DNA of 53,416 bases from an uncultured Candidatus Sumerlaeota bacterium (lineage in GTDB: Bacteria; CAYMEV01): the NCBI GenBank assembly GCA_964389675.1, contig CAYMEV010000024.1:1-53416 (forward strand), given 5' to 3'. Position numbers and translations under genes: made by a program. The notes under the pieces are model-generated. The model was given only the letters and a program-made list of their open reading frames with translations, had not been told where the DNA came from and did no database searches. Below are positions 26,847-43,272 of this stretch, piece after piece; within the stretch, counting starts at the first letter, position 1; every line of letters begins with the position of its first letter.

Positions 26847-29800
26847 ATGGGAAGATTGAATATTCTATCACTATTTGCTGGTATACACCTCTCTCAGCTG
26901 ATCTGCATCCTGCTGCTGTCCCTTCCCGTATATGGCCAAAGCAATCGCGTTCAGTTCCAGAACATCTCCATTGAACAGGGTTTGTCCCAAAGCATTGTAG
27001 AGTGTATTCTCCAGGACAGGACGGGATTTCTCTGGTTTGGCACAGAGGACGGGCTGAACCGCTATGACGGCTACACTTTCACTGTATACAAGGAAGATCC
27101 AGACAATGAAAATTCTCTGAGCCATGACAATATCCTATGTTTGTATGAGGATGGGGATGGAATTATCTGGATAGGAACCTTCCACGGGGGTTTGACGCGC
27201 TTTGATACCTTAACCGGGCGCTTTACCCGCTTCCGGCACGATGCCAGCGCAGGCAGCCTGAGCAGCAATGTTGTCTACAGCGTGGTTCGCGACAGAAAAG
27301 GCAATCTCTGGGTGGGCACAGCCGATGGATTGAACCGTTTTGACGAAACAGAGCAGTCATTCCGGGTTTACCGCCACCAGGATGGAGATCCGAACAGCCT
27401 GAGTCATAACACCATCCGATCAATGTGCCTGGATGCCCGTGGTAATCTATGGATAGGAACGGATGGCGGCGGCTTATGCATGTATGACGGTGCCGGTTTT
27501 GTCAGCTACAGGGCTTCGGGTAAACCTGACAGCATCAGCCATGACAGCGTGCTGGAGGTCTTTTGCGATTCCCAGGGTATACTCTGGCTGGGAACGAACG
27601 GCGGCGGCCTGAATTCCCTGGACATAGAGGAGAACCATTTTTATGTCTTCAGGCACAAGCCCGGCCAGCCGCACAGCCTGAGCAACGATGTTGTGCTCGC
27701 TGTTTATGAGGACGATAAGGGCAGGTTGTGGGTTGGCACGAATGACGGCCTGAACCTGTACAGCAGGCAGACCAACCGCTTTACCCGTTATTATAAGAAT
27801 GGGGCAGACCCGAACAGCCTGAGCCATAACGAAATACACTCCATCTACCAGGATTACAGCGGGGTGCTGTGGTTCGGCACCTATGGGGGCGGCATTAATA
27901 AGCTTCTGGGCCAGGACAAGGGGTTCAACCTGTTGCAGGCAGATCCGGAAAATACGAACAGCCTGAGTCACAACATTGTGTGGGCCATCTGCGAACAAGA
28001 AGACAACATTCTGTGGATAGGCACGCATGGCGGTGGTCTAAACCGCCTGGACCGCAAAAGCGGCATATTTCGAAATTATCGGCACAATACCCAGGATCCC
28101 GCAAGCTTAAGCAATGACATGGTAAGGGTTATTTTTATAGATCATGCCGGCACCTTCTGGCTGGGTACGAACGGAGGCGGTATCTGCCGCTTTGACAGCG
28201 AAAAAGGGACTTTCCGCACCTACACCTATCAGGCAGATGATCCGGAAAGCCTCAGCCATAGCCAGGTGCGCTGCATCTACGAGGACTCAGATCACGACCT
28301 CTGGGTAGGCACGCACGGCGGGGGACTCAACCGCTTTGACAGCCATAGCGCTGCCTTTGTGCGTTATCTCTCCGGTACAGTACCCGGTATGCTGAACAAC
28401 GCTGTGGTGCGCTGCATACTGGAAATAAAACCGCACGTGCTATGGGTAGGAACCTATGGCGGCGGTATCAATGTGTTTGATAAGCATACCGCTCGCTTTA
28501 GTTATATCACGAGCCAGCCGGACAATCCTGCCAGTTTGAGCAATAACTATGTGTTTTGCCTGTTCCGCGACAGCAAGAACAGGCTATGGGTAGGTACGGA
28601 AGGTGGATTAAACTATTTCAACGAGCAGGATGGAACATTCAAACGCTACACAAGGGATGATGGGCTGCCGGACAACACTATCTACGGCATACTGGAGGAC
28701 GATCAGGGACACCTGTGGCTGAGTACCAACAACGGCCTGTCCCGCTTCAACCCACAGCAGGAGTCATGCAAAAACTACACTGTCCTTGACGGCCTGCAAA
28801 GCAACGAGTTCAATGGAGGTTCTTTTTTCCGCAATCCCGTAAGCGGGGAAATGTTCTTCGGCGGCATCAACGGATTGAACACTTTCTTCCCCCGTCAAAT
28901 TCGCGACAACCCATATAAACCGCCTGTGGTTATTACCTCATTTAAGAAGCTGAACAGGGAGCATATAGGTGGCACGCCTATATTCGCGCTCCAGAAAATT
29001 ACCTTATCCTACAGGGACTATTTCTTTTCATTTGAATTTGCCGCCCTGGACTTTACCATACCGGATAAGAACCAATACAGCTACAAACTGGAAGGACTGG
29101 ATGAACAGTGGATCAATACGGACGCCAGGCACCGGGTAGCTTCCTATACCACATTAGCGCCGGGAACTTACACATTCCTGGTAAGAGGCACTAATAATGA
29201 CGGTATCGGTAAAGACACACCCACACGCCTGATTATTCACATTACCCCGCCCTTCTGGGCTACCTGGTGGTTCCGCTTATCTGCCATTGCCGCCCTGTTC
29301 CTGACAGTCCTGTTCCTCTACAAGAGCCACATCCGAAACGTTTACAGCCGTACCCGGCTGGAAACGGAGCTGAAAACTGCCCATCACGCACAAATGTCCA
29401 TCATGCCCCAGCATGACCCCCGGGTACCGGGGTATGATATTTCCGGCAGATGCTTTCCTGCTAATGAGGTGGGCGGAGATTTCTTTGATTACTTCTGGCT
29501 TGAGGAAGGCCGTGAATCCATTGGTATTGCTGTCGGCGACGTGTCCGGAAAGGCCATGAAGGCGGCCATGACCGCGGTACTCAGCCACGGTGTGCTCTTT
29601 TCACAGAGCACGGCCAGTAATTCCCTGCAGGACCTGATGCACTGGCTCAACCACATCCTGTACCACAAGACGGAGAAGTCCATATTCCTGGTCATCTGCC
29701 TGCTGGCCCTGAGGCGCGGGACCCGGGAGCTCACATTCTGCAACGCCGGTCTGCCAATGCCATTGCTTAAATCGGGAGGCACAGTCAAGCCGCTGGAGCA

Positions 29801-30092
29801 GAAGCCAGCCATGCCCCTGGGTGTACAGCCGCAACATCAGGTGCAGGAATGCCATGTCACCCTTGTTCCCGGAGATGTACTGCTGGTTTTCAGCGACGGT
29901 CTGACAGAAGCCTGGAACAGGCAGCGTGAGTTCTACGGCACAGGAAGGCTTGCAGCAACCCTGGAGGCCCTGGATACCCACAGTTTGAGCGCTGCCGAAA
30001 TAGCTGACCGGCTGGTTGCAGATATTAAGACATTTTCCAGGAACATGGAGCAACATGACGACATGAACCTGGTGGCAATCAAGGTCCTGTAG
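26847..30092 (+). CDS. Membrane sensor phosphatase: two-component-regulator beta-propeller repeats, Y_Y_Y domain, TM helix and SpoIIE/PP2C domain
   Basis: Repeated LWxGTxGGGLNRF and SLSHN motifs, YSYKLEG...YTTLAPGTYTF, PPFWATWWF, and SpoIIE motifs EVGGDFFDY, GDVSGKA, FSDGLTEA and QHDDM. Confidence 0.93.
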   Translation: MGRLNILSLFAGIHLSQLICILLLSLPVYGQSNRVQFQNISIEQGLSQSIVECILQDRTGFLWFGTEDGLNRYDGYTFTVYKEDPDNENSLSHDNILCLYEDGDGIIWIGTFHGGLTRFDTLTGRFTRFRHDASAGSLSSNVVYSVVRDRKGNLWVGTADGLNRFDETEQSFRVYRHQDGDPNSLSHNTIRSMCLDARGNLWIGTDGGGLCMYDGAGFVSYRASGKPDSISHDSVLEVFCDSQGILWLGTNGGGLNSLDIEENHFYVFRHKPGQPHSLSNDVVLAVYEDDKGRLWVGTNDGLNLYSRQTNRFTRYYKNGADPNSLSHNEIHSIYQDYSGVLWFGTYGGGINKLLGQDKGFNLLQADPENTNSLSHNIVWAICEQEDNILWIGTHGGGLNRLDRKSGIFRNYRHNTQDPASLSNDMVRVIFIDHAGTFWLGTNGGGICRFDSEKGTFRTYTYQADDPESLSHSQVRCIYEDSDHDLWVGTHGGGLNRFDSHSAAFVRYLSGTVPGMLNNAVVRCILEIKPHVLWVGTYGGGINVFDKHTARFSYITSQPDNPASLSNNYVFCLFRDSKNRLWVGTEGGLNYFNEQDGTFKRYTRDDGLPDNTIYGILEDDQGHLWLSTNNGLSRFNPQQESCKNYTVLDGLQSNEFNGGSFFRNPVSGEMFFGGINGLNTFFPRQIRDNPYKPPVVITSFKKLNREHIGGTPIFALQKITLSYRDYFFSFEFAALDFTIPDKNQYSYKLEGLDEQWINTDARHRVASYTTLAPGTYTFLVRGTNNDGIGKDTPTRLIIHITPPFWATWWFRLSAIAALFLTVLFLYKSHIRNVYSRTRLETELKTAHHAQMSIMPQHDPRVPGYDISGRCFPANEVGGDFFDYFWLEEGRESIGIAVGDVSGKAMKAAMTAVLSHGVLFSQSTASNSLQDLMHWLNHILYHKTEKSIFLVICLLALRRGTRELTFCNAGLPMPLLKSGGTVKPLEQKPAMPLGVQPQHQVQECHVTLVPGDVLLVFSDGLTEAWNRQREFYGTGRLAATLEALDTHSLSAAEIADRLVADIKTFSRNMEQHDDMNLVAIKVL

Positions 30093-32007: not shown

Positions 32008-32079
32008 AGCCGGTGAAGGGATTTGAACCCATGACCTGATAATTACGAATTACCTGCTCTACCCCTGAGCTACACCGGC
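32008..32079 (-). tRNA. tRNA-Thr(CGT), CCA not encoded
   Basis: Minus strand GCCGGTG-TA-GCTC AGGGGTA GAGC-A-GGTAA TT CGT AA TTATC-AGGTC-ATGGG TTCAAAT CCCTT-CACCGGC-T forms a cloverleaf with one U.U mismatch in the T-stem. Confidence 0.95.
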
Positions 32080-33562: not shown

Positions 33563-34513
33563 ATGGAAATACTGATCAACCCGAAGAATTTACCGGAAAG
33601 TATAAAAAGGACATCCATTACGATAGGCAATTTTGATGGCATACATCTGGGGCATCAGCTGCTTATAAGGAAGGTAGTCTCTCTTGCAGAATATAAAAAC
33701 AGCATGCCAGCCCTCATAACATTTGCACCGCACCCTCAGAAGAGCCTGGATCTGTCCAAAGCCCCGCTTCTCCTGACTCCGTTGAAGAAAAAGATACAGA
33801 TCCTTCAGGGTTTTTCCCTTAAGCTTATGGTGATTTTCGATTTCAACCATAGTTTTTCAAAACAGCCTCCTGAAATTTTTATCAGGGAGTACATATCACG
33901 GATTATCAGGGCAGAGGATATTGTAATAGGGGAGAACTTCAGGTTTGGCAGAAATGGTGCAGGCAATGTGGAAATGCTGAAAGGATTTGGCTTGAATTAT
34001 GGATTTGAAACCCATATAATGAAGAGCATAATGGATGAAGGAGAAATAATTTCCAGCACATTGATAAGGAAATGCATTAAAGCTGGTGATGTAATAAGGG
34101 CATGCAGGCTTTTAGGCAGATATTTCAGCATATCAGGGAAGGTACAGAAAGGCAAGGGGATTGGAAGCAGTCTTGGGTTCCCGACAGCAAACATACCTCT
34201 CCCGGAAGGCATAGTGCCAAAAAAGGGTGTATATATCACATTCTGCTCTACCGGCTCTGATTATTTCCCATCCATTACAAATATAGGGACAACACCAAGT
34301 GTATCAAACAGGCCGCTGACAATCGAAGTCCATATACTTAACAGGGATATCGATATATACAATGAGGATATAGAGATTTTCTTTCTTGAGAGGCTCAGGG
34401 ATGAAAATCACTATGAAAGCATTGAGAAACTTAAAACAGCAATTGGCAATGATGTAAATTATGCAAATCAATTTTTCCAGAGAGGAGATTTTATCTATAA
34501 TGATTTCTGTTGA
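33563..34513 (+). CDS. ribF: Bifunctional riboflavin kinase/FAD synthetase
   Basis: IGNFDGIHLGHQ, ISSTLIR, LGFPTAN, EVHIL and LRDE. Confidence 0.96.
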   Translation: MEILINPKNLPESIKRTSITIGNFDGIHLGHQLLIRKVVSLAEYKNSMPALITFAPHPQKSLDLSKAPLLLTPLKKKIQILQGFSLKLMVIFDFNHSFSKQPPEIFIREYISRIIRAEDIVIGENFRFGRNGAGNVEMLKGFGLNYGFETHIMKSIMDEGEIISSTLIRKCIKAGDVIRACRLLGRYFSISGKVQKGKGIGSSLGFPTANIPLPEGIVPKKGVYITFCSTGSDYFPSITNIGTTPSVSNRPLTIEVHILNRDIDIYNEDIEIFFLERLRDENHYESIEKLKTAIGNDVNYANQFFQRGDFIYNDFC

Positions 34514-34967
34514 TATCGCAATCGCATCTGACCATGGCGGGTATGAACTGAAAGAGGTTCTGAAGGAGTACCTGAAAAGCAATAATTATAATGTTAAGGA
34601 TTTTGGATGTCACAGCAGGGAATCAGTGGATTACCCGGAATATGCAGAAAAATGCTGTAACCATGTCCTTTCCGGCCGCGACTGCCTGGGTGTGCTTATC
34701 TGCGGGTCAGGAATCGGTATGAGCATTACAGCAAATAAGATAAAGGGAATAAGGGCTGCTTTGTGTACAAGCGAGTATCATGCAAGGCTGAGCAGAGAGC
34801 ATAATAATGCCAATGTCCTTTGCCTCGGCGCAAGATATACAGCCGGTGATTATGCTATGAGGATACTCGATGCCTTTCTGATATCAAAGTTTGAGGGAGG
34901 AAGGCACATTAAAAGGCTGAACAGGATAAAAGAAATAGAAACAAAAGGTTCTGGAAACTGTAAATAA
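34500..34967 (+). CDS. rpiB: Ribose-5-phosphate isomerase B
   Basis: ASDHGG, VDYP, CGSGIGM, HNNANVL and FEGGRH. Start more likely ATG 34500 (GAGGAG upstream) than 34461. Confidence 0.95.
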   Translation: MISVDIAIASDHGGYELKEVLKEYLKSNNYNVKDFGCHSRESVDYPEYAEKCCNHVLSGRDCLGVLICGSGIGMSITANKIKGIRAALCTSEYHARLSREHNNANVLCLGARYTAGDYAMRILDAFLISKFEGGRHIKRLNRIKEIETKGSGNCK

Positions 34968-34972
34968 AAATA

Positions 34973-34981
34973 TGTTATACT
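34973..34981 (+). promoter_or_regulatory. Putative extended -10 promoter for the CDF-SPFH operon
   Basis: TG-T-TATACT 27 nt upstream of ATG 35008. Confidence 0.4.
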
Positions 34982-35007
34982 CTTTTAAGGGGAATTAAGA
35001 TATAATT

Positions 35008-36759
35008 ATGCCGGAGAATCAGAAAAAAAAGGAACAGACAGCAGTAATATCAATAGTCGGCAATGTCCTTATAACTGCTGTGAAGTTCATTGCATTCTAT
35101 TTTACCTCAAGCATAGTTGTTCTGGCTGAGGCATGGCATTCCCTTACTGATATAATCACTTCATTCATGGTTTTCTATGCCCTTAAAAAGGACTGGAAAA
35201 AAAAAGAGGAAAAAACCCCTGAAGACAGCTTCCTGATGAACCTCCTGAATTCCAGCTACGAGATAAAAAGCTCCATACTGATTGGATGTTTTATCTTTAT
35301 GGTCGGATTTTCCCTGCTGATGAGGACCATCTTTGAAGAGCTTGAGATCGTTAAATATCCCCTTGAATCCGGGCTGTTCTTTCTTCTGTTTGCTTTTCTG
35401 TCTTATGTGATATACAAGTTTGAAACAAGGTCAGGAAAGGAGCTTAAGTCTCCCGGGCTTATTTCAGATGGCATGCACAGCAGATCAGATGCCCTTACAT
35501 CGCTTTTCGCCGGATTTTCTCTTATTCTTTATTACCTTGGCATGGATATTGAACGCCTGTCAGCTTCTGTTATCTCGATAATAATCATTGGATTTGGAAT
35601 TGAGGTGGTGATCAACTCACTCAGGGCTGTCAGTAAAAAGGAAGATATATTTGACCTTAAGATCAACCAGATGCTTTTTATCATTTTTACCAGGAGTTTC
35701 TGGATTAAGGTTGACAGCAGGTTCAACCTTAACCTGACCAGCTTTTTCTCCCGAAACAAAGAAAAGACAAAATGGTCAGTTATCATTCTTATACTCTGTA
35801 TATATTCAAGTACATCATTCTTTACTGTTAAGACCAACAGCAATGCTATTGTGGAAAGGTTCGGAAAATCAACAGAAACTGTATATGATGCCGGCCTGCA
35901 TATAAAACTGCCCTTCCCGATCGACAGGGTAAGGGTACTTGAGACCAGGTCAGTACAGAAGATAGATATAGGCAATGTGCTGAACACAAACAGTTTTGCC
36001 CTGCTCTGGACACAGGAGCATGGTTCTGATGAGCCTTTTATTTCCGGGGATAATAACCTTTTTTATCCGTATCTTACTATATATTACAATATATATGATT
36101 CAAGGGGATTTTTGTATTCTGCATCCAGCCCTGCTGAGATCTTTGTCGATATTGCTCAGTCGGTAATAACAGAATTGTTTTCAAAGTACAGCTTCTTTGA
36201 TATTGCAACCTACCAGAGAGCAGCCATTCCTGACACCATAGCCGAGATAATACAGAAACAGTGTGATGATCTAAATCTGGGGATCAGGATATTAAATATA
36301 ACGATCAATGATGTTCATCCGCCAATACCTATTGCCACATATTTTGAGGATGTCATAGCTGCCATTCAGGACAAGGAGATGATGATAAACCGAAGCATTG
36401 CATTCAGGAACCAGAAGATCCCTGAAGCGAGGTCAGAGGCGATCAGGGAGGTTGAAAATGCAAAAGCCTACAGCTTTAATAGGATTCGCACATCTGAGGG
36501 GCTTTCGGAAAGTTTCAGGCTGAAACTTATGGGGTACAGGAAATATTCTGACATACTGAGGAAATTCTATATATTTGCTGCCTTATCCAGAGCCTATTTG
36601 GATAAAAAGCTTTTTATAGTTGATGAAAGCCTTCCAATGCCTGATATCTGGAGATCTGACATAAAAGCGACAATATCAGCACCAGAGCTGGCATCGGAAA
36701 GCCAGGACTCAACAACGGGGAATTTTACTGAAGAAGAAAGAAAATTCCTTGATCAATAA
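35008..36759 (+). CDS. Fusion of a cation diffusion facilitator TM domain and an HflK-like SPFH domain
   Basis: CDF motifs NVLITAVKF, LAEAWHSLTD, YEIKSS and LISDGMHSRSD, then SPFH motifs FFTV...AIVERFGK...GLHIKLPFPIDRV, SGDNNL, DVHPP, FEDV and IPEARSEA. Confidence 0.88.
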   Translation: MPENQKKKEQTAVISIVGNVLITAVKFIAFYFTSSIVVLAEAWHSLTDIITSFMVFYALKKDWKKKEEKTPEDSFLMNLLNSSYEIKSSILIGCFIFMVGFSLLMRTIFEELEIVKYPLESGLFFLLFAFLSYVIYKFETRSGKELKSPGLISDGMHSRSDALTSLFAGFSLILYYLGMDIERLSASVISIIIIGFGIEVVINSLRAVSKKEDIFDLKINQMLFIIFTRSFWIKVDSRFNLNLTSFFSRNKEKTKWSVIILILCIYSSTSFFTVKTNSNAIVERFGKSTETVYDAGLHIKLPFPIDRVRVLETRSVQKIDIGNVLNTNSFALLWTQEHGSDEPFISGDNNLFYPYLTIYYNIYDSRGFLYSASSPAEIFVDIAQSVITELFSKYSFFDIATYQRAAIPDTIAEIIQKQCDDLNLGIRILNITINDVHPPIPIATYFEDVIAAIQDKEMMINRSIAFRNQKIPEARSEAIREVENAKAYSFNRIRTSEGLSESFRLKLMGYRKYSDILRKFYIFAALSRAYLDKKLFIVDESLPMPDIWRSDIKATISAPELASESQDSTTGNFTEEERKFLDQ

Positions 36760-36775
36760 TATGGAGATATAAGCT

Positions 36776-37648
36776 ATGAAAAAGGTTCTTATAGTTATTG
36801 TACTGTTAGCATTACTACTGTATTTTTCAGCTTTTATAAATCAGCAGGGCGAATATGCTGTAATTACGCAGTTCGGGAAGCCTGTAAGGATCATAAAGGA
36901 ACCGGGGATATATTTAAAACTGCCGGGATTTTTGAATACAGTCAACAGGTTTGATGCAAGAATGGATATCTTTAAGACAAATCCTGTACAGCTTCTTTTA
37001 GGTGATAAGAACCCCATTATAATCACTGCTTTTGTTGTATGGGCGATAGACGACCCCCTTCTTTTCTTTCAGGCAATAGGCTACAAGGATCTTGCAACCG
37101 GTAAGCTGAATGACATGATAAACAGTGAACTAAGTGAAAAATTGAGCTTTTACACACTGGATAATATAGTAAATACTGACAGGGAGAATGTGAAGATAAC
37201 AGAGATCGAGCAGAAGGTTACCTCATCCTCAAATTCCAAGACAGTCAAAAACTATGGAATTAAAATTATATCGGTAGGGATCAGGAGAATAAACTATCCA
37301 TCTATTGTTGCCGATGCTGTATATAACCGTATGAAAGCTGAAAGGGAGAAGGAAGCAAAAAGGGTAAGGGCAGAGGGGATTGAGGAAGCGACCAAAATAA
37401 AGGCAGAAACGGACAGGCTTGTATCTGATATTATTTCCCAGGCGAAGAAAGATGCGGAAATCATCAAGGGTGAAGGAGATTACCAGGCATCTCTTATAAT
37501 CGGGGAGGCATATTCAAAGGACAGGGAGTTCTTTGAACTGCTGAAGTCGCTTGAATCTATTGAAAAGGCAATTAATGAAAAATCAGTGCTGATTCTGTCT
37601 ACTGACAGTTTTCTGTTTAAGATACTTAAAGGCAGAGAAGAAAAATAG
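36776..37648 (+). CDS. hflC: HflC-like SPFH protein
   Basis: AVITQFGKP...EPGIYLKLP, VYNRMKAERE...RAEG, IIKGEGD and FFELLKSLE. Confidence 0.88.
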   Translation: MKKVLIVIVLLALLLYFSAFINQQGEYAVITQFGKPVRIIKEPGIYLKLPGFLNTVNRFDARMDIFKTNPVQLLLGDKNPIIITAFVVWAIDDPLLFFQAIGYKDLATGKLNDMINSELSEKLSFYTLDNIVNTDRENVKITEIEQKVTSSSNSKTVKNYGIKIISVGIRRINYPSIVADAVYNRMKAEREKEAKRVRAEGIEEATKIKAETDRLVSDIISQAKKDAEIIKGEGDYQASLIIGEAYSKDREFFELLKSLESIEKAINEKSVLILSTDSFLFKILKGREEK

Positions 37649-37651
37649 TAT

Positions 37652-38623
37652 ATGTACGGGGAATTCTTAAAAACCATAAAGGAAATGAGGAAATACCTCA
37701 AGTATTTAATCTGGGCAGGAGTCATTATATACTTTTTATCCGGTATATACACCATTTCACAGGATCAGGTCGGAATCCTCCTCAGGTTTGGGAAAATAAT
37801 AAATCCCAAGGTTAATCCCGGTTTCAACTACCATTTCCCGTATCCCTTTGAAAGGATCATCAAAGCCCCGATAAAGAGGATCAATACCATGGTAATTGAT
37901 GATTTTTCCGACAGTTACGAAGCAGAGTCAACTCCAAGGAAATTTTATGATATAACCGGGCTTGCTTCATATTGTGTAACCGGCGATAATAATATTGTCG
38001 GTATCTCCATGTCCATACAGTACAAGATTGGAAACCCTGCAAATTACTATTTTATGCAGAATTCACCTGAGCGGATCATATATGAGATAGCAGCTAATTC
38101 CATTATCAAGATACTGTCTCATTATGATGTTGACAGCATTCTTACAAGTGCAAAAAGGGATCTGGGCATATCGATCAGGAACCTGATGCAGGAGAGGCTG
38201 AATAGTATTGACTCCGGGGTAGACGTATATTTTATTGATATCAGCTATATCAGGCCGCCGGAGTCAGTGCAGTCATTCTTCGATGATGTGATCAATGCAA
38301 AGATAGAAAGAAAAAATATGCTTGATGAGGCTTTGTCATACAAAAACACGGAGCTTCTCAGAGCCAGCGGAGAAAAGGCAAGTATAACAGAGTCTGCAAA
38401 AGGCTATAAGACATCCGTCATCAATATCAACGAGGGGGAAGCTGACAGGTTTACAAAGCGTATTGAGGGCTTCAGAGGGTACCGGGAAATTATTATTTCT
38501 GATGTCTACCTTGAATATGCATTAAGGATATTCAATAAGGTCAGGAACCTGTACCTGATCGATCCCAAAGATGAATCCGGATCCTCCAGGCTCAGGTTCA
38601 TAATTGACAGTGATAATAATTGA
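37652..38623 (+). CDS. hflK: HflK-like SPFH protein
   Basis: SGIYTI...GILLRFGK...PGFNYHFPYPFE, VTGDNNIV, RPPESVQSFFDDV and EGEADRF. Confidence 0.85.
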   Translation: MYGEFLKTIKEMRKYLKYLIWAGVIIYFLSGIYTISQDQVGILLRFGKIINPKVNPGFNYHFPYPFERIIKAPIKRINTMVIDDFSDSYEAESTPRKFYDITGLASYCVTGDNNIVGISMSIQYKIGNPANYYFMQNSPERIIYEIAANSIIKILSHYDVDSILTSAKRDLGISIRNLMQERLNSIDSGVDVYFIDISYIRPPESVQSFFDDVINAKIERKNMLDEALSYKNTELLRASGEKASITESAKGYKTSVININEGEADRFTKRIEGFRGYREIIISDVYLEYALRIFNKVRNLYLIDPKDESGSSRLRFIIDSDNN

Positions 38624-39912: not shown

Positions 39913-40665
39913 ATGAAAATATTAAAAGGATTATCACAGTATTTTTCTCTGAAGCTGTTAAAGACATCGCGTATTGTCTTCGGGGTGTTTATTTTTCTTG
40001 GCCTTTTATCCCCCGTCCCCCTGCTTGATGAATTGCTCTTCATAGTGCTGTTTGCTGTTTCCCATTTCCTTCTTAAGGAAAAAGAAGCTGAAATAAGGAA
40101 TGAAAACTATATGCAGGATGATAATTATCAGCTGCTGAAGGATGAGATCGAAAAGAGTATTAACAGCCTTAACAGCTATATCATCGAAAACGAACTGGAT
40201 AAATATGATGACAGCATACCCGGGCAGATCAAGGATATTGAGGATATTATCAATCAGAATTTTGAGGTGGTCAAAACCTCTACGATCAGGCTTAAACAGC
40301 TTTCCTTTAATCCGAAGCAGTATGATGAGAAACGAAAGGATATCCTAAACAGCCTTGAAGGCAATATCCCGGAAAAGGAAAGGAAATACCTGGAAGAGAC
40401 CCTGAAAAACCTTCTGGAGTATAAATCAAGTGTTTACAGGCTTATTGCAAAAAGGAGAGAGATAATAGCAGTGATTGAGAATCTGTATTACCAGATAAAG
40501 ACCCTCTATGCAAAGCTCCTTAACCAGGATGTGAGGATACAGAAGGAAGAGCCTTTCAAGAAGCTTAAAAATGAGATAGATGAGATTATTAAATCAGTTG
40601 AAGATATAGAAAAAGCAAAGAAAGAGACAGATATAATCATCAACAGCATTCATGATGTCATGTGA
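39913..40665 (+). CDS. Hypothetical membrane-anchored coiled-coil protein
   Basis: Two N-terminal hydrophobic segments followed by long charged helices, 250 aa. Confidence 0.75.
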   Translation: MKILKGLSQYFSLKLLKTSRIVFGVFIFLGLLSPVPLLDELLFIVLFAVSHFLLKEKEAEIRNENYMQDDNYQLLKDEIEKSINSLNSYIIENELDKYDDSIPGQIKDIEDIINQNFEVVKTSTIRLKQLSFNPKQYDEKRKDILNSLEGNIPEKERKYLEETLKNLLEYKSSVYRLIAKRREIIAVIENLYYQIKTLYAKLLNQDVRIQKEEPFKKLKNEIDEIIKSVEDIEKAKKETDIIINSIHDVM

Positions 40666-40680: not shown

Positions 40681-43272
40681 TTAGAAAATCCACCTCAGAG
40701 GTACCCTCCAGCTTAGGGTATTTTCATTCATCAGAACCGATTCAAGTATATAGAAATATCTGGCACCGTTCTTCACATTATCTGCGAAGCTGTAACTGCA
40801 GGGCGTATTAATCGATCCGCTGGCAGGTATAAGGACTCTGTTCAGCCTTACCGGCAAATAGGAAAAACCGGGGCTTATCTTTTTTCCAACCAGCCTGTAG
40901 ATATTATAGCCCCTGATATAATACTCTGTGTTTGTCCCCCATTTTATTAAAACATTTCCCAGATAGCCGTCTGCTTTGAAATAGTCTATTTCCAGAGGCA
41001 GGATAATACTCGAAACAGCCTCATTATTCTCCGGAATTTCATCATGGGGAAGTACGCCGGAAATATAAGCCAGGATACCATATTCAGCTGTGTGATCAAA
41101 TTCTAATCCTCCCGTATCCCACTGCAATACTATGACAATGCTCCCAAGCGGGGCGATCTGGCCAAATGACTGCTCTGAAATAAAAACCGGGGTTTCATTC
41201 CCTTCAATTATGTAAAAGAGGCTTATAAGCCCGCTTTCAACTGCCTCAAGCCCGTTATTCCTTATCCTTGTGCCGATGTCTATAATATCTTCATCTTCTG
41301 CAGTCTCAAAGGCAATGTCATAGCCTGATATTGAAGCATCACTCTGTTCAGTCACGAATGGATTCAGCCTTGCGGCATATATATCCCCGTAACCGTTATA
41401 TGATGTATCCCATCCGTTTTCTACAGGCATATTGAATGAGGCACTCTGCCCGGCGATAAGTATATTATCATATTTATCGGCAGCCAGGGAAAAGCAGTAA
41501 TCCTCGCTGTTCCCGTCAAAGTAAAATTCCCATTCTAATGTGTCTCCTTCAGGGCTTATCTTAAGAAGGTCCATATTGACGACATTTTCCTGATATCTGC
41601 TGCTTATCCCGGCCAGTACAAAGTCATTTGAGTCTGTATCAAGGGCATAGCAGTAATCATCAAGATTATCGCCGATATATGACCCCCATATCATGCTGTT
41701 TCCGTTAAAGGCCAGTTTTGCCAGATAGGCATCATAATCACCGCCAAATGAATTATTCAATCCATCAGGCACCGGTATATCACCAGAAGAGGTAAAGCCT
41801 CCAATGACTGCATTATTATCAGAATCCAATGCAATGCATCTTCCATAGTCCTCATTGCTTCCCCCGATATATGTGCCCCACAATATACTTTTCCCGTCCC
41901 CGGACAGCTTTGCAGCGTATATGTCCCATTCACCGTTGAATGTATCATCATATGAATTTGGGCAGGGATTATCATCTGAATTTGTAAACCCCGTGATCAG
42001 TATATTATTCTCATTATCGAGAGCAATGGCCCTGCCCTGGTCATTACCCGACCCCCCAAGGAAACTTCCCCACAGGACAGCATTCCCTCCCGGGCTGATC
42101 TTTGCCACATAAATATCTATATCCCCGTTGCGTGTATTGTCAAAACCTCCATGCACAGGAATATCATCGGAACCTGTCCACCCTGTAATGTATATATTGT
42201 CTTCACTGTCAGTTACTATTCCAAGCCCGCTGTCCATGCCTTCCCCTCCCAGGTACGTTGCCCACAGCAAACAGTTCCCGTCAGGGTTCAGCTTACAGAT
42301 ATACATGTCAAGGGGCCCGCTGAGGCTGGAATCATATCCGTTAATTACAGGGATATCATCAGAGTCAGTGTTCCCTGAAATTATAATATTATCCTCAGAA
42401 TCAATGACTGCAGAATAGCCGTAATCATCCTGACTGCCGCCTATGAAGGTTGCCCATAAGAGGCTGTTTTCATCAGCTGTCATCTTTGCTGCATAAATAT
42501 CCCAGCTTCCGTTGAATGTTGTATCATAGCCATCAGGTGCAGGAATGTCCAGTGAGTTTGTAAATCCAATAATTACAGCATTATTTTCGGAATCCAGTCT
42601 TATAGCCTTGCACTGGTCAATAAGAGTTCCTCCTAGATAGGTTCCCCAGAGGATATTTTCCTGCATGCCTTTTGAGCCCTCAGGAATGCTCTTTTTATTC
42701 AGCTCATTATAAGTAATCTTTTTATCCCCGGATATTGAGCCTACCCTGTCAGCAGATACATCATCTCCCTGCAACTTGAACACTACATCTCTGTACCCTG
42801 TATCAAAGATCAGGTCAGCCCCCGGGTAAATTTCAGCTATCTTTATCCTGCGGTATGAAGAAACATCTGTAATCCACCGGTCACTTCCAAAACCTGTAAA
42901 AAAATTAAATTTTGTCAAAGCCTGTTCCTCTTCAATAATATTGCTGAAATCCGCCCCTGGAAACTCAATATAAACATTCTCCACATTATATGAGATATTA
43001 TCGGCATATTCCTTATCAATCCCTCTTTTCTTATAAGGTTCTTTCCCGGTAAACAGGATATACTGAAATACTATGTCATTTTTCCTGATGAGTACCCTTC
43101 TCTTTTTCATATGAGTATAGTAAAGTATTTCAGCCTCAAGCTGTCCTTCATTCTTTATCCATAATCCTGAAATACCGGTATTGCTGTATTCTTCGTCTTC
43201 CATGCAGTATAGTTCAGTACAGGCTGATAGAAGGCAAATGATAATGAGTGATAATATGAAATATTTATTCAT
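40681..43272 (-). CDS. Secreted SBBP beta-propeller repeat protein with CARDB-like and C-terminal Ig-like domains
   Basis: Signal peptide, KNEGQ N-domain, ~7 repeats of WxTYxGG...D....I.xDSxxN...GxTxSxD.P, and PHDEIPENN (CARDB). Confidence 0.85.
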   Translation of the reverse strand: MNKYFILSLIIICLLSACTELYCMEDEEYSNTGISGLWIKNEGQLEAEILYYTHMKKRRVLIRKNDIVFQYILFTGKEPYKKRGIDKEYADNISYNVENVYIEFPGADFSNIIEEEQALTKFNFFTGFGSDRWITDVSSYRRIKIAEIYPGADLIFDTGYRDVVFKLQGDDVSADRVGSISGDKKITYNELNKKSIPEGSKGMQENILWGTYLGGTLIDQCKAIRLDSENNAVIIGFTNSLDIPAPDGYDTTFNGSWDIYAAKMTADENSLLWATFIGGSQDDYGYSAVIDSEDNIIISGNTDSDDIPVINGYDSSLSGPLDMYICKLNPDGNCLLWATYLGGEGMDSGLGIVTDSEDNIYITGWTGSDDIPVHGGFDNTRNGDIDIYVAKISPGGNAVLWGSFLGGSGNDQGRAIALDNENNILITGFTNSDDNPCPNSYDDTFNGEWDIYAAKLSGDGKSILWGTYIGGSNEDYGRCIALDSDNNAVIGGFTSSGDIPVPDGLNNSFGGDYDAYLAKLAFNGNSMIWGSYIGDNLDDYCYALDTDSNDFVLAGISSRYQENVVNMDLLKISPEGDTLEWEFYFDGNSEDYCFSLAADKYDNILIAGQSASFNMPVENGWDTSYNGYGDIYAARLNPFVTEQSDASISGYDIAFETAEDEDIIDIGTRIRNNGLEAVESGLISLFYIIEGNETPVFISEQSFGQIAPLGSIVIVLQWDTGGLEFDHTAEYGILAYISGVLPHDEIPENNEAVSSIILPLEIDYFKADGYLGNVLIKWGTNTEYYIRGYNIYRLVGKKISPGFSYLPVRLNRVLIPASGSINTPCSYSFADNVKNGARYFYILESVLMNENTLSWRVPLRWIF

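Follow-up and report, generated by a model that had tools for sequence, protein, structure and literature searches.

A cation diffusion facilitator domain fused to an HflK-like subunit in a conserved three-gene module of uncultured bacteria

In Escherichia coli, HflK and HflC are alternating subunits of a periplasmic dome that is anchored by their N-terminal helices. Cation diffusion facilitators (CDFs) export metal out of the cytoplasm in exchange for protons. Passages of PMC12048511 describe HflK/C cages that open and close around FtsH; for the CDFs, passages of PMC5703985 give an A-site quartet on transmembrane helices 2 and 5 (TM2 and TM5) as the one metal site conserved in function, and state that some CDFs have no cytoplasmic domain. 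Both kinds of protein meet in the locus analysed here, which lies on a contig of 53,416 nt from an uncultured Candidatus Sumerlaeota bacterium (GenBank assembly GCA_964389675.1, contig CAYMEV010000024.1); the entire contig, C24 in our numbering, is referred to as the window. The three genes of the locus encode K1, in which a CDF transmembrane domain is fused to an HflK-like part, followed by an HflC-like protein and by K2, a free HflK-like protein (Table 1). As in the E. coli HflK/HflC-FtsH system (7vhp, 7vhq, 7wi3, 9cz1, 9cz2), HflK-type and HflC-type subunits are encoded side by side and share the N-terminal transmembrane anchor, the periplasmic SPFH domain, the long coiled coil and the C-terminal strand motif. 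Unlike that system, the module has three subunits instead of two in the order K1-C-K2 with no hflX or ftsH nearby, and in K1 a six-helix CDF domain takes the place of the cytoplasmic tail of E. coli HflK. K1 resembles YiiP/FieF and the ZnT-type CDFs (5vrf, 8f6k, 8xmf, 9jj1) in the six-helix fold and in the A-site quartet on TM2 and TM5, and differs from them in the lack of a ZT_dimer domain, in the lack of a His-rich loop (the TM4-TM5 loop is short) and in the fusion to an SPFH protein.

The CDF nature of the N-terminal part, which an earlier reading of the letters without database searches (the sequence-only reading) had proposed, is borne out by profile and structure comparison. Pfam Cation_efflux (PF01545) matches K1 at residues 13-206 (E 8.4e-18; 65.3 bits against a cut-off of 26.6) and Band_7 (PF01145) at residues 273-462 (E 2.7e-21), while no Pfam match to ZT_dimer appears in K1 at E <= 0.1. 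In the AlphaFold2 model, built from a 119-sequence alignment (mean predicted local distance difference test score (pLDDT) 81.3, predicted template modelling score (pTM) 0.57), the CDF part has six helices (3-33, 36-62, 84-109, 118-146, 149-176 and 182-210). Foldseek matches this part in the PDB to YiiP (5vrf_A, root-mean-square deviation 3.7 over 216 columns), 8f6k_B, ZnT1, ZnT3, ZnT7 and SLC30A10, i.e. to the YiiP/ZnT fold; a sequence search of the PDB with the CDF part alone gave 0 matches at E <= 1. The scores against the magnetosome CDFs MamB (NF033616, 49.3 bits) and MamM (NF033615, 27.3 bits), each with a cut-off of 350, reflect generic CDF similarity only. Behind the sixth helix, a linker with three short predicted helices (219-225, 229-239 and 243-249) occupies the place of the C-terminal ZT_dimer domain of other CDFs. 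The seventh transmembrane helix (TM7) that follows aligns with the transmembrane segment of E. coli HflK (chain residues 87 onward) and is the counterpart of the HflK N-terminal membrane anchor. The C-terminal part of K1 matches E. coli HflK (7vhq_E) by phmmer (E 4.5e-21) and by Foldseek (E 3.9e-13), and Foldseek also finds 9cz2 and other SPFH cages. The coiled coil runs into a C-terminal strand motif, LFIVDE...PDIW, whose aligned counterpart in K2 and canonical HflK is a C-terminal hydrophobic-x-hydrophobic-D motif. K1 therefore retains all HflK elements, namely the transmembrane anchor, the SPFH domain, the long coiled coil and the C-terminal strand, and the Pfam and AlphaFold2 results agree with the earlier description of a CDF in which the ZT_dimer domain is replaced by a further helix and a full HflK-like part. 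The domain E-values, from 1e-18 to 1e-53, are far past chance expectation.

Lys/Arg-rich segments lie at the N-terminus of K1, in the TM2-TM3 and TM4-TM5 loops, after TM6 and before TM7. Because of these segments and the positive-inside rule, we infer a cytoplasmic N-terminus and a cytoplasmic linker, with seven helices and a periplasmic C-terminal part as in HflK; the CDF bundle would therefore occupy the position of the cytoplasmic N-terminal tail of E. coli HflK.

Table 1. Features of the K1-HflC-K2 locus; positions are those of the window and residue numbers in the six K1 parts are those of K1
Feature	Position	Strand	Basis
Putative promoter-like site: TGGAAA, 18-nt spacer, TATACT, TG ahead of the -10 hexamer	34952..34981	+	Consensus match only
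K1, CDF transmembrane domain + HflK-like fusion, 583 aa	35008..36759	+	Open reading frame, Pfam, NCBIfam, AlphaFold2, Foldseek
CDF transmembrane domain, residues 1-210	35008..35637	+	PF01545, AlphaFold2, Foldseek
Linker, residues 211-250, predicted cytoplasmic	35638..35757	+	AlphaFold2; no ZT_dimer match
Seventh transmembrane helix, residues 251-268	35758..35811	+	AlphaFold2
SPFH (Band_7) domain of K1, residues 271-435	35818..36312	+	PF01145, phmmer, Foldseek
Conserved K1-specific loop, residues 329-349, FALLWTQEHGSDE...SGDNN	35992..36054	+	AlphaFold2, 119-sequence alignment
Long coiled-coil helices of K1, residues 440-529	36325..36594	+	AlphaFold2
HflC-like subunit, 290 aa	36776..37648	+	Open reading frame; TIGR01932
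K2, free HflK-like subunit, 323 aa	37652..38623	+	Open reading frame; TIGR01933

The two downstream proteins pass curated cut-offs, in line with their earlier naming as HflC and a free HflK. The HflC-like protein scores 179.5 bits against the hflC model TIGR01932 (cut-off 134.4), and K2 scores 165.6 bits against the hflK model TIGR01933 (cut-off 159.4) and matches E. coli HflK (7vhq_E) with E 2.1e-31. A complex prediction for residues 246-583 of K1 with the HflC-like protein and K2, made from our own alignments (score 0.02, mark 0.32), is used neither for nor against binding. The transfer to K1 and K2 of the contact between HflK Arg191 and FtsH, taken from passages of PMC12048511, was dropped; by count, the aligned chain position 191 is not an Arg, and the numbering is not trusted.

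The fusion in K1 is a genuine, recurrent architecture, judging from its homologues. Both Pfam domains are present in 119 of the 120 best homologues listed, the query included, and the exception is a fragment of 335 aa; the database names of these homologues include 'protease modulator HflK family protein', 'membrane protease subunit HflK' and 'cation diffusion facilitator family transporter'. When 1.84 billion representatives were searched exhaustively with a profile, 2625 matched at E <= 1e-30, a set expected to contain ordinary HflK proteins as well. The best 150 representative clusters (50% identity) all match at E <= 1.5e-73, and 129 of them have a length of at least 500 aa; when 13 of the 150 were chosen for split matches or odd length and scanned with Pfam, 12 had both domains. 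In ESM Atlas clusters of 111, 50 and 70 members, both families occur in 100% of members. A search among shorter proteins for stand-alone or split forms gave four matches, two of which are truncated fusions that reach TM7 and the first portion of the SPFH part; the other two end in unrelated letters, and since the search was word-based, free forms may still exist. The survey across genomes that had been named as a check on the fusion has thus found it widespread, and unbroken in independent contigs where these cover it. A shorter fusion subfamily of about 520 aa (P0239, P0240, P0245, P0246 and P0260) scores higher against Cation_efflux, at 74-111 bits.

The three genes also recur together. With one genome taken per species, we collected 62 related loci, all from metagenome-assembled genomes; their deposited labels include Planctomycetota (Pirellulales, Phycisphaerales, Planctomycetales), Thermodesulfobacteriota/Desulfobacterales, Spirochaetales, Hydrogenedentota, Muiribacteriota, Thermoanaerobaculales, Holophagae, Eisenbacteria, Euphemobacter, 'PVC group', Pseudomonadota and 'Rickettsiales'. 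Open reading frames (ORFs) of at least 120 aa in these loci were classed against the CDF part, the K1 SPFH part, the HflC-like protein and K2 of the window. K1, HflC and K2 follow each other in one order and on one strand in all 59 loci with enough downstream DNA, and the remaining three (L012, L037 and L070) are cut by a contig edge. In the window the three genes are separated by 16 nt (K1/HflC-like) and 3 nt (HflC-like/K2), the close spacing described in the sequence-only reading, and the operon proposed there is real by this comparison. When spacing is measured to the nearest in-frame start, which biases it toward small gaps, the gap lies between -10 and +30 nt in 47 of the 59 loci for K1/C and in 55 for C/K2; start/stop overlaps of 4 or 1 nt occur in 20/59 and 19/59, respectively. 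Clustering of the flanking ORFs of 61 loci revealed no gene beyond the triad in more than eight loci, and the commonest other cluster is a Ser/Thr kinase (8/61 loci, all labelled Planctomycetota).

An IQ-TREE quick tree of 86 rows was calculated from 26 of the 59 triads, spanning the labels, and from the canonical HflK/HflC pairs of four carrier genomes, with a midpoint root for drawing only. In this tree K1, K2 and the module HflC each form a single clade (Shimodaira-Hasegawa-like approximate likelihood ratio test values 100, 99 and 96), all apart from canonical HflK and HflC, from which the module proteins differ in having clades of their own. The module C clade is sister to canonical HflC; the tree does not settle the branching among K1, K2 and canonical HflK. 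The same sub-groupings (for example window + L009, L029 + L053, L011 + L017, L028 + L057, L047 + L062 and L058/L060/L064/L065) are found in all three clades, as expected from co-inheritance as a unit. By these comparisons K1, the HflC-like protein and K2 are a strictly conserved module, a separate and co-evolving paralogous lineage.

Whether the carrier genomes also encode a canonical hflKC had been posed as a question for follow-up, and the answer varies between genomes. The genome of the window (93.8% complete) has no further hflK or hflC above the curated cut-offs, so that the 290-aa HflC-like protein is the product of its sole hflC above the TIGR01932 cut-off. It has two ftsH genes (on contigs C12 and C2), hflX on contig C1 and three ordinary-length CDFs (frames of 300-315 aa); with the module on C24, the statement that no ftsH or hflX lies nearby holds. 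Around the 62 loci, ftsH was found neither among the two neighbours scanned per side nor among the recurrent clusters. Ten other carrier genomes, for which completeness is not given, were examined. Six of these (G001-G005 and G010) have a separate, unfused and canonical-scoring hflK outside the triad, at 240-293 bits. A weaker hflK-model match lies directly beside it in G001-G003 and G005, and a second SPFH-sized ORF, taken as hflC, beside it in G001-G004. The closest relative (G006) and G007 have the triad only; G008 has the triad and two more long frames, G009 the triad and a partial frame. As G001 carries two triads on one chromosome and three fusion-length frames of G008 match the hflK model, the module can be multi-copy, to judge by these frames. 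The module is therefore paralogous to hflKC and usually occurs alongside it; for some lineages, that of the window included, it may be the only HflK/C-type system. The window's genome also contains a stomatin-type SPFH gene adjoining an NfeD gene, a flotillin-like gene, and on contig C11 (25185-26790; L003 1348-3484) an unclassified two-gene SPFH system of adjacent genes for 365 and 345 aa, both of which match Band_7 and score far under the hflK and hflC cut-offs, the second with a weak Flotillin match. A Band_7_1-type SPFH protein with a C-terminal double zinc ribbon is encoded on contig C1 (L008 1168-2223, minus strand) next to a LIMLP_15305-family gene.

The A-site of K1 consists of H44 and D48 on TM2 and H157 and D161 on TM5 (HD-HD); these are the HxxxD motifs HSLTD and HSRSD, whose intactness had been noticed from the letters and stands. 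The four residues, together with E41 and D154, are invariant in 119/119 aligned sequences, and H44 is kept in 13/13 distant subfamily representatives aligned to K1. The use of HD-HD as a mark of Zn2+ did not survive. According to passages of PMC5703985, HD-HD is the commonest CDF quartet and occurs in eight clades, zinc clades and an iron clade included; positions 14 and 18 of the iron clade are Asp and Asn, respectively. Unlike that clade, K1 has the second-shell residues Ser52 and Asp154 at these positions by our own mapping, and it therefore fits neither the zinc nor the iron-clade signature. The quartet supports a divalent transition metal as the cargo predicted for K1, not zinc specifically. 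A set of metal-related families, seeded from a Pfam scan of the two nearest ORFs per side (204 proteins), was looked for within 6 kb of the triad; FeoB occurs in six loci, all of one Desulfobacterota-type clade, and a DtxR-type repressor in eight, which belong to the same FeoB-bearing clade and to a second clade (L051, L061 and L066). Other neighbours in the metal set are NUBPL/Mrp-type Fe-S carriers (8 loci), CbiA-Fer4 (6), NifU (3), FecCD (1), MgtE (1) and DUF1007 with NicO (3). These neighbourhood hints lean weakly to iron or manganese. In two Desulfobacterota-type loci (L014 4377-5886 and L040 4207-5813), the triad is immediately preceded on its own strand by the DUF1007 gene and the NicO-type metal permease gene, with FeoB and a DtxR-type repressor slightly further out; this gene set may be a larger metal-homeostasis operon.

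We propose that the module specifies a dedicated HflK/C-type assembly of three subunits with a tethered client of its own, a divalent-metal/H+ antiporter lacking the C-terminal domain, a proposal whose chances we regard as evenly balanced. Because the module is conserved, the A-site invariant and the clades parallel, a heteromeric SPFH assembly with a transporter is the most economical reading. Of its parts, co-assembly of K1, the HflC-like protein and K2 is likely by analogy with HflK/HflC, and activity of the CDF domain as a transporter is somewhat favoured by the residues conserved in it. K1 would start in the cytoplasm with its six-helix CDF domain and a cytoplasmic linker of ~40 residues, and cross back to the periplasm with its seventh helix, which would place the complete HflK body (SPFH domain, coiled coil and C-terminal strand) in the periplasm. 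There, K1, the HflC-like protein and K2 would build a ring or dome over the inner membrane, on its periplasmic side, like that of E. coli HflK/HflC, in which the K1 positions tether the transporter in or at a fenced membrane patch and K2 supplies HflK positions free of cargo. The CDF domain would act as a divalent-metal/H+ antiporter that carries metal out of the cytoplasm, with Zn2+, Fe2+ and Mn2+ as candidates; the SPFH ring could stand in for the oligomerisation or dimerisation and the regulation provided by the missing cytoplasmic domain, and could confine metal export to a capped microdomain. Of the earlier interpretation, the architecture, the operon and the intact metal site are upheld, with clades of their own added to them, and the zinc signature and the coupling of zinc status to FtsH are not. 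That coupling is topologically awkward, because CDFs export from the cytoplasm, where the protease domain of FtsH sits, and the gene neighbourhoods give no link between the module and FtsH.

Several results weigh against the proposed assembly. K1 scores 140.3 bits against the hflK model, under its cut-off of 159.4, and is for that reason to be called HflK-like by profile and not a certified HflK equivalog. It also stays under the cut-off of the full-length CDF model TIGR01297 (74.4 against 82.35 bits), with a match to profile positions 2-196 of 285, i.e. the membrane part only. In the AlphaFold2 model it is uncertain how the CDF and SPFH parts are placed relative to each other (pTM 0.57), so that the CDF domain may lie inside or outside the ring. 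In the distant representatives the A-site is degenerate in 2 of 13 (P0266 and P0255) and HD-ED in one (P0264), and because of the degenerate sites transport is not needed everywhere the fusion persists. At least one gene of the metal-related set is found within 6 kb in 21 of the 62 loci, a minority that is partly lineage-bound. In the window itself, ORFs and Pfam give no metal-related gene among the module's neighbours, Rfam at the gathering threshold gives no riboswitch (its single match is a tRNA), and no inverted repeat or operator-like palindrome is present at 34880-35020. The Rfam scan was extended to six of the 62 related loci and found nothing besides the tRNA of the window; a Zur-box-like consensus had 0 matches in the window with up to three mismatches allowed. 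Lastly, since the window's genome and four of the ten other carriers show no separate canonical hflKC, the module may also do the ordinary FtsH-modulating job where canonical hflKC was not found.

This last point can be developed into a different explanation, a metal-gated FtsH modulator, in which the module is the organism's HflK/C and the CDF-like domain is a metal sensor or a regulated substrate that changes the opening of the cage and hence the proteolysis of membrane proteins by FtsH. The curated hflC and hflK cut-offs passed by the HflC-like protein and K2 would agree with it, as would a window genome with two ftsH genes and no other hflK or hflC above cut-offs, the four of ten other carriers likewise without a separate canonical hflK, and the opening and closing of HflK/C cages around FtsH reported in passages of PMC12048511; retention of the fusion in 2/13 distant representatives that have lost A-site residues also fits a non-transport role. 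Yet the separate canonical hflKC in six of ten other carriers and the presence of two modules in one genome point to a distinct job, no ftsH lies beside the 62 loci (two neighbours per side) or in the recurrent clusters, and an A-site quartet invariant in 119/119 sequences is as in a working transporter. We consider this explanation unlikely.

The assumption that the three proteins work together may be dropped as well: K1 would be a CDF exporter that uses its SPFH tail for self-oligomerisation only, in place of the lost dimerisation domain, and the HflC-like protein and K2 would form a separate, ordinary HflK/C complex that shares the operon. SPFH proteins can form homo-oligomeric rings (stomatin and QmcA are among the structural matches), and CDFs normally need a dimerisation element, which K1 is without. 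Such independence is very unlikely in view of the K1-C-K2 order in 59/59 complete loci of many phyla with frequent start/stop overlaps, the parallel tree sub-groupings of the three proteins, and module C and K2 clades distinct from the canonical HflC and HflK that coexist in 6/10 genomes; moreover K1 is HflK-like, and E. coli HflK/C-type proteins pair with HflC. An assembly or gene-calling error that joined a CDF gene to an hflK gene would be conceivable for a metagenome-type assembly in which 35580-35709 is covered solely by the probable source run (X1). Against it, the 583 codons form one uninterrupted frame, over a hundred independent homologues share the architecture, and two of the four short-protein matches continue into TM7 and the SPFH beginning and are truncated fusions. 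Where contigs of two further marine-sediment studies (runs X2 and X3) cover the locus, they show 0 insertions or deletions relative to it, and run X3 spans 35710-36013, which takes in TM7 and the beginning of the K1 SPFH part. An artefact is practically inconceivable on these grounds.

A K1-specific loop in the SPFH part suggests a further role for the assembly. The loop has a pLDDT below 50 and yet is strongly conserved: in the 119 sequences W334 is invariant and A331, L332, T335, H338 and G339 are each conserved at 90% or more. E. coli HflK is without this segment; a loop of comparable length, with a different sequence, occurs in K2 and in canonical HflK from four genomes. H437, in a DVHPP motif, is likewise invariant in K1 and is replaced by Arg in K2 and by Val, Asn or Arg in canonical HflK. 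In 14 aligned sequences from distant subfamilies, the position of H437 is a His in 9/9 sequences with a W-x(2-3)-H loop and in 0/5 without the loop; the five loop-less sequences (about 520 aa) resemble one lineage, so that the co-occurrence may be a single evolutionary event. These five are the shorter subfamily mentioned above, in which the loop and this His are both missing. A conserved and poorly modelled loop is expected of an interface or a ligand site, and the pair of predicted periplasmic His residues is offered as a lead only. On a reading that we rate as quite unlikely, the module is a periplasmic metal-handling chamber: a divalent metal pumped by K1 out of the cytoplasm would arrive beneath the K1/C/K2 dome, where H338 (of the W-x3-H loop) and H437 on the SPFH surface would receive or buffer it; the exported metal would be shielded from sulfidic surroundings, or passed on to specific clients in the periplasm or the membrane. 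If true, a bacterial SPFH cage would be a reaction compartment and not a protease regulator.

SPFH genes tied to a specific membrane-protein partner are known from other settings. Flotillin-associated rhodopsin is said to be a case of an SPFH gene coupled genetically to such a partner, and the SPFH-NfeD operons (E. coli QmcA-YbbJ, 8z5g) resemble the module in the same respect; in both, unlike in K1, the partner is encoded by a separate gene and is not a metal transporter, and there are no two HflK paralogues with an HflC. The nearest functional parallel for the proposed assembly is human stomatin, whose cages reportedly enclose aquaporin-1 and urea transporter-B (PDB 9zd2; PMC12407830); an SPFH-family cage holds a channel or transporter in an enclosed patch there, and 9zd2_E is among the structural matches of K1. 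The stomatin cage is non-covalent, cytoplasmic and homo-oligomeric, whereas in the module the client is covalently fused, and the dome would be periplasmic with presumably hetero-oligomeric walls. The opinion that no characterised system is of this kind agrees with our literature search, which found no description of a CDF-SPFH/HflK fusion; the passages of a 2009 survey of prokaryotic SPFH proteins (PMC2636767) that we consulted contain neither 'cation' nor 'transporter', and the matches listed for a pairing of cation diffusion facilitator with HflK concern Pseudomonas zinc homeostasis. The fusion family is already in databases under automatic names; what is new is the addition of a third subunit and a built-in transporter to a system of the HflK/C type.

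SPFH cages (HflK/C, prohibitin, stomatin, flotillin and erlin) have recently been seen as domes that fence a membrane patch. Here a defined client, predicted to be a small and assayable metal/proton antiporter, is covalently tied to one cage subunit and kept with two partners across many phyla. The module could therefore show what cages do to the proteins they hold, as a natural test system for transport with and without a cage, for the position of the client and for the need for two HflK paralogues. K1 also defines a CDF clade that manages without a cytoplasmic regulatory domain, and the module flags a putative metal-homeostasis device typical of uncultured bacteria, many of them from sediment; the window sequence itself occurs in marine-sediment and sediment metagenomes.

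The module is flanked in the window by ribF, rpiB and a class I/II aminotransferase gene. The promoter-like site of Table 1, in which 9/12 hexamer positions agree with the consensus, sits in the 40-nt gap that precedes K1, and a purine-rich stretch, AAGGGGAA, precedes the K1 ATG. The rpiB-type ORF (34461-34967, plus strand; LacAB_rpiB E 1.6e-57) overlaps as listed the 3' end of the ribF-like ORF (33563-34513); its Pfam match begins at residue 19, so that the true start is probably further downstream. The tRNA gene lies at 32008-32079 on the minus strand. Further upstream, an ORF of 1081 aa (26847-30092, plus strand) appears by eye to have many two-component-regulator propeller-type repeats, a transmembrane segment and a PP2C/SpoIIE phosphatase-like C-terminal part; the GC content at 28-30 kb is 0.53, compared with about 0.40 in the surroundings. 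On the 3' side of the module are a coiled-coil-rich ORF of 250 aa (39913-40665, plus strand) with no Pfam match above threshold and an ORF for a repeat-rich, apparently secreted protein of 863 aa (40681-43272, minus strand).

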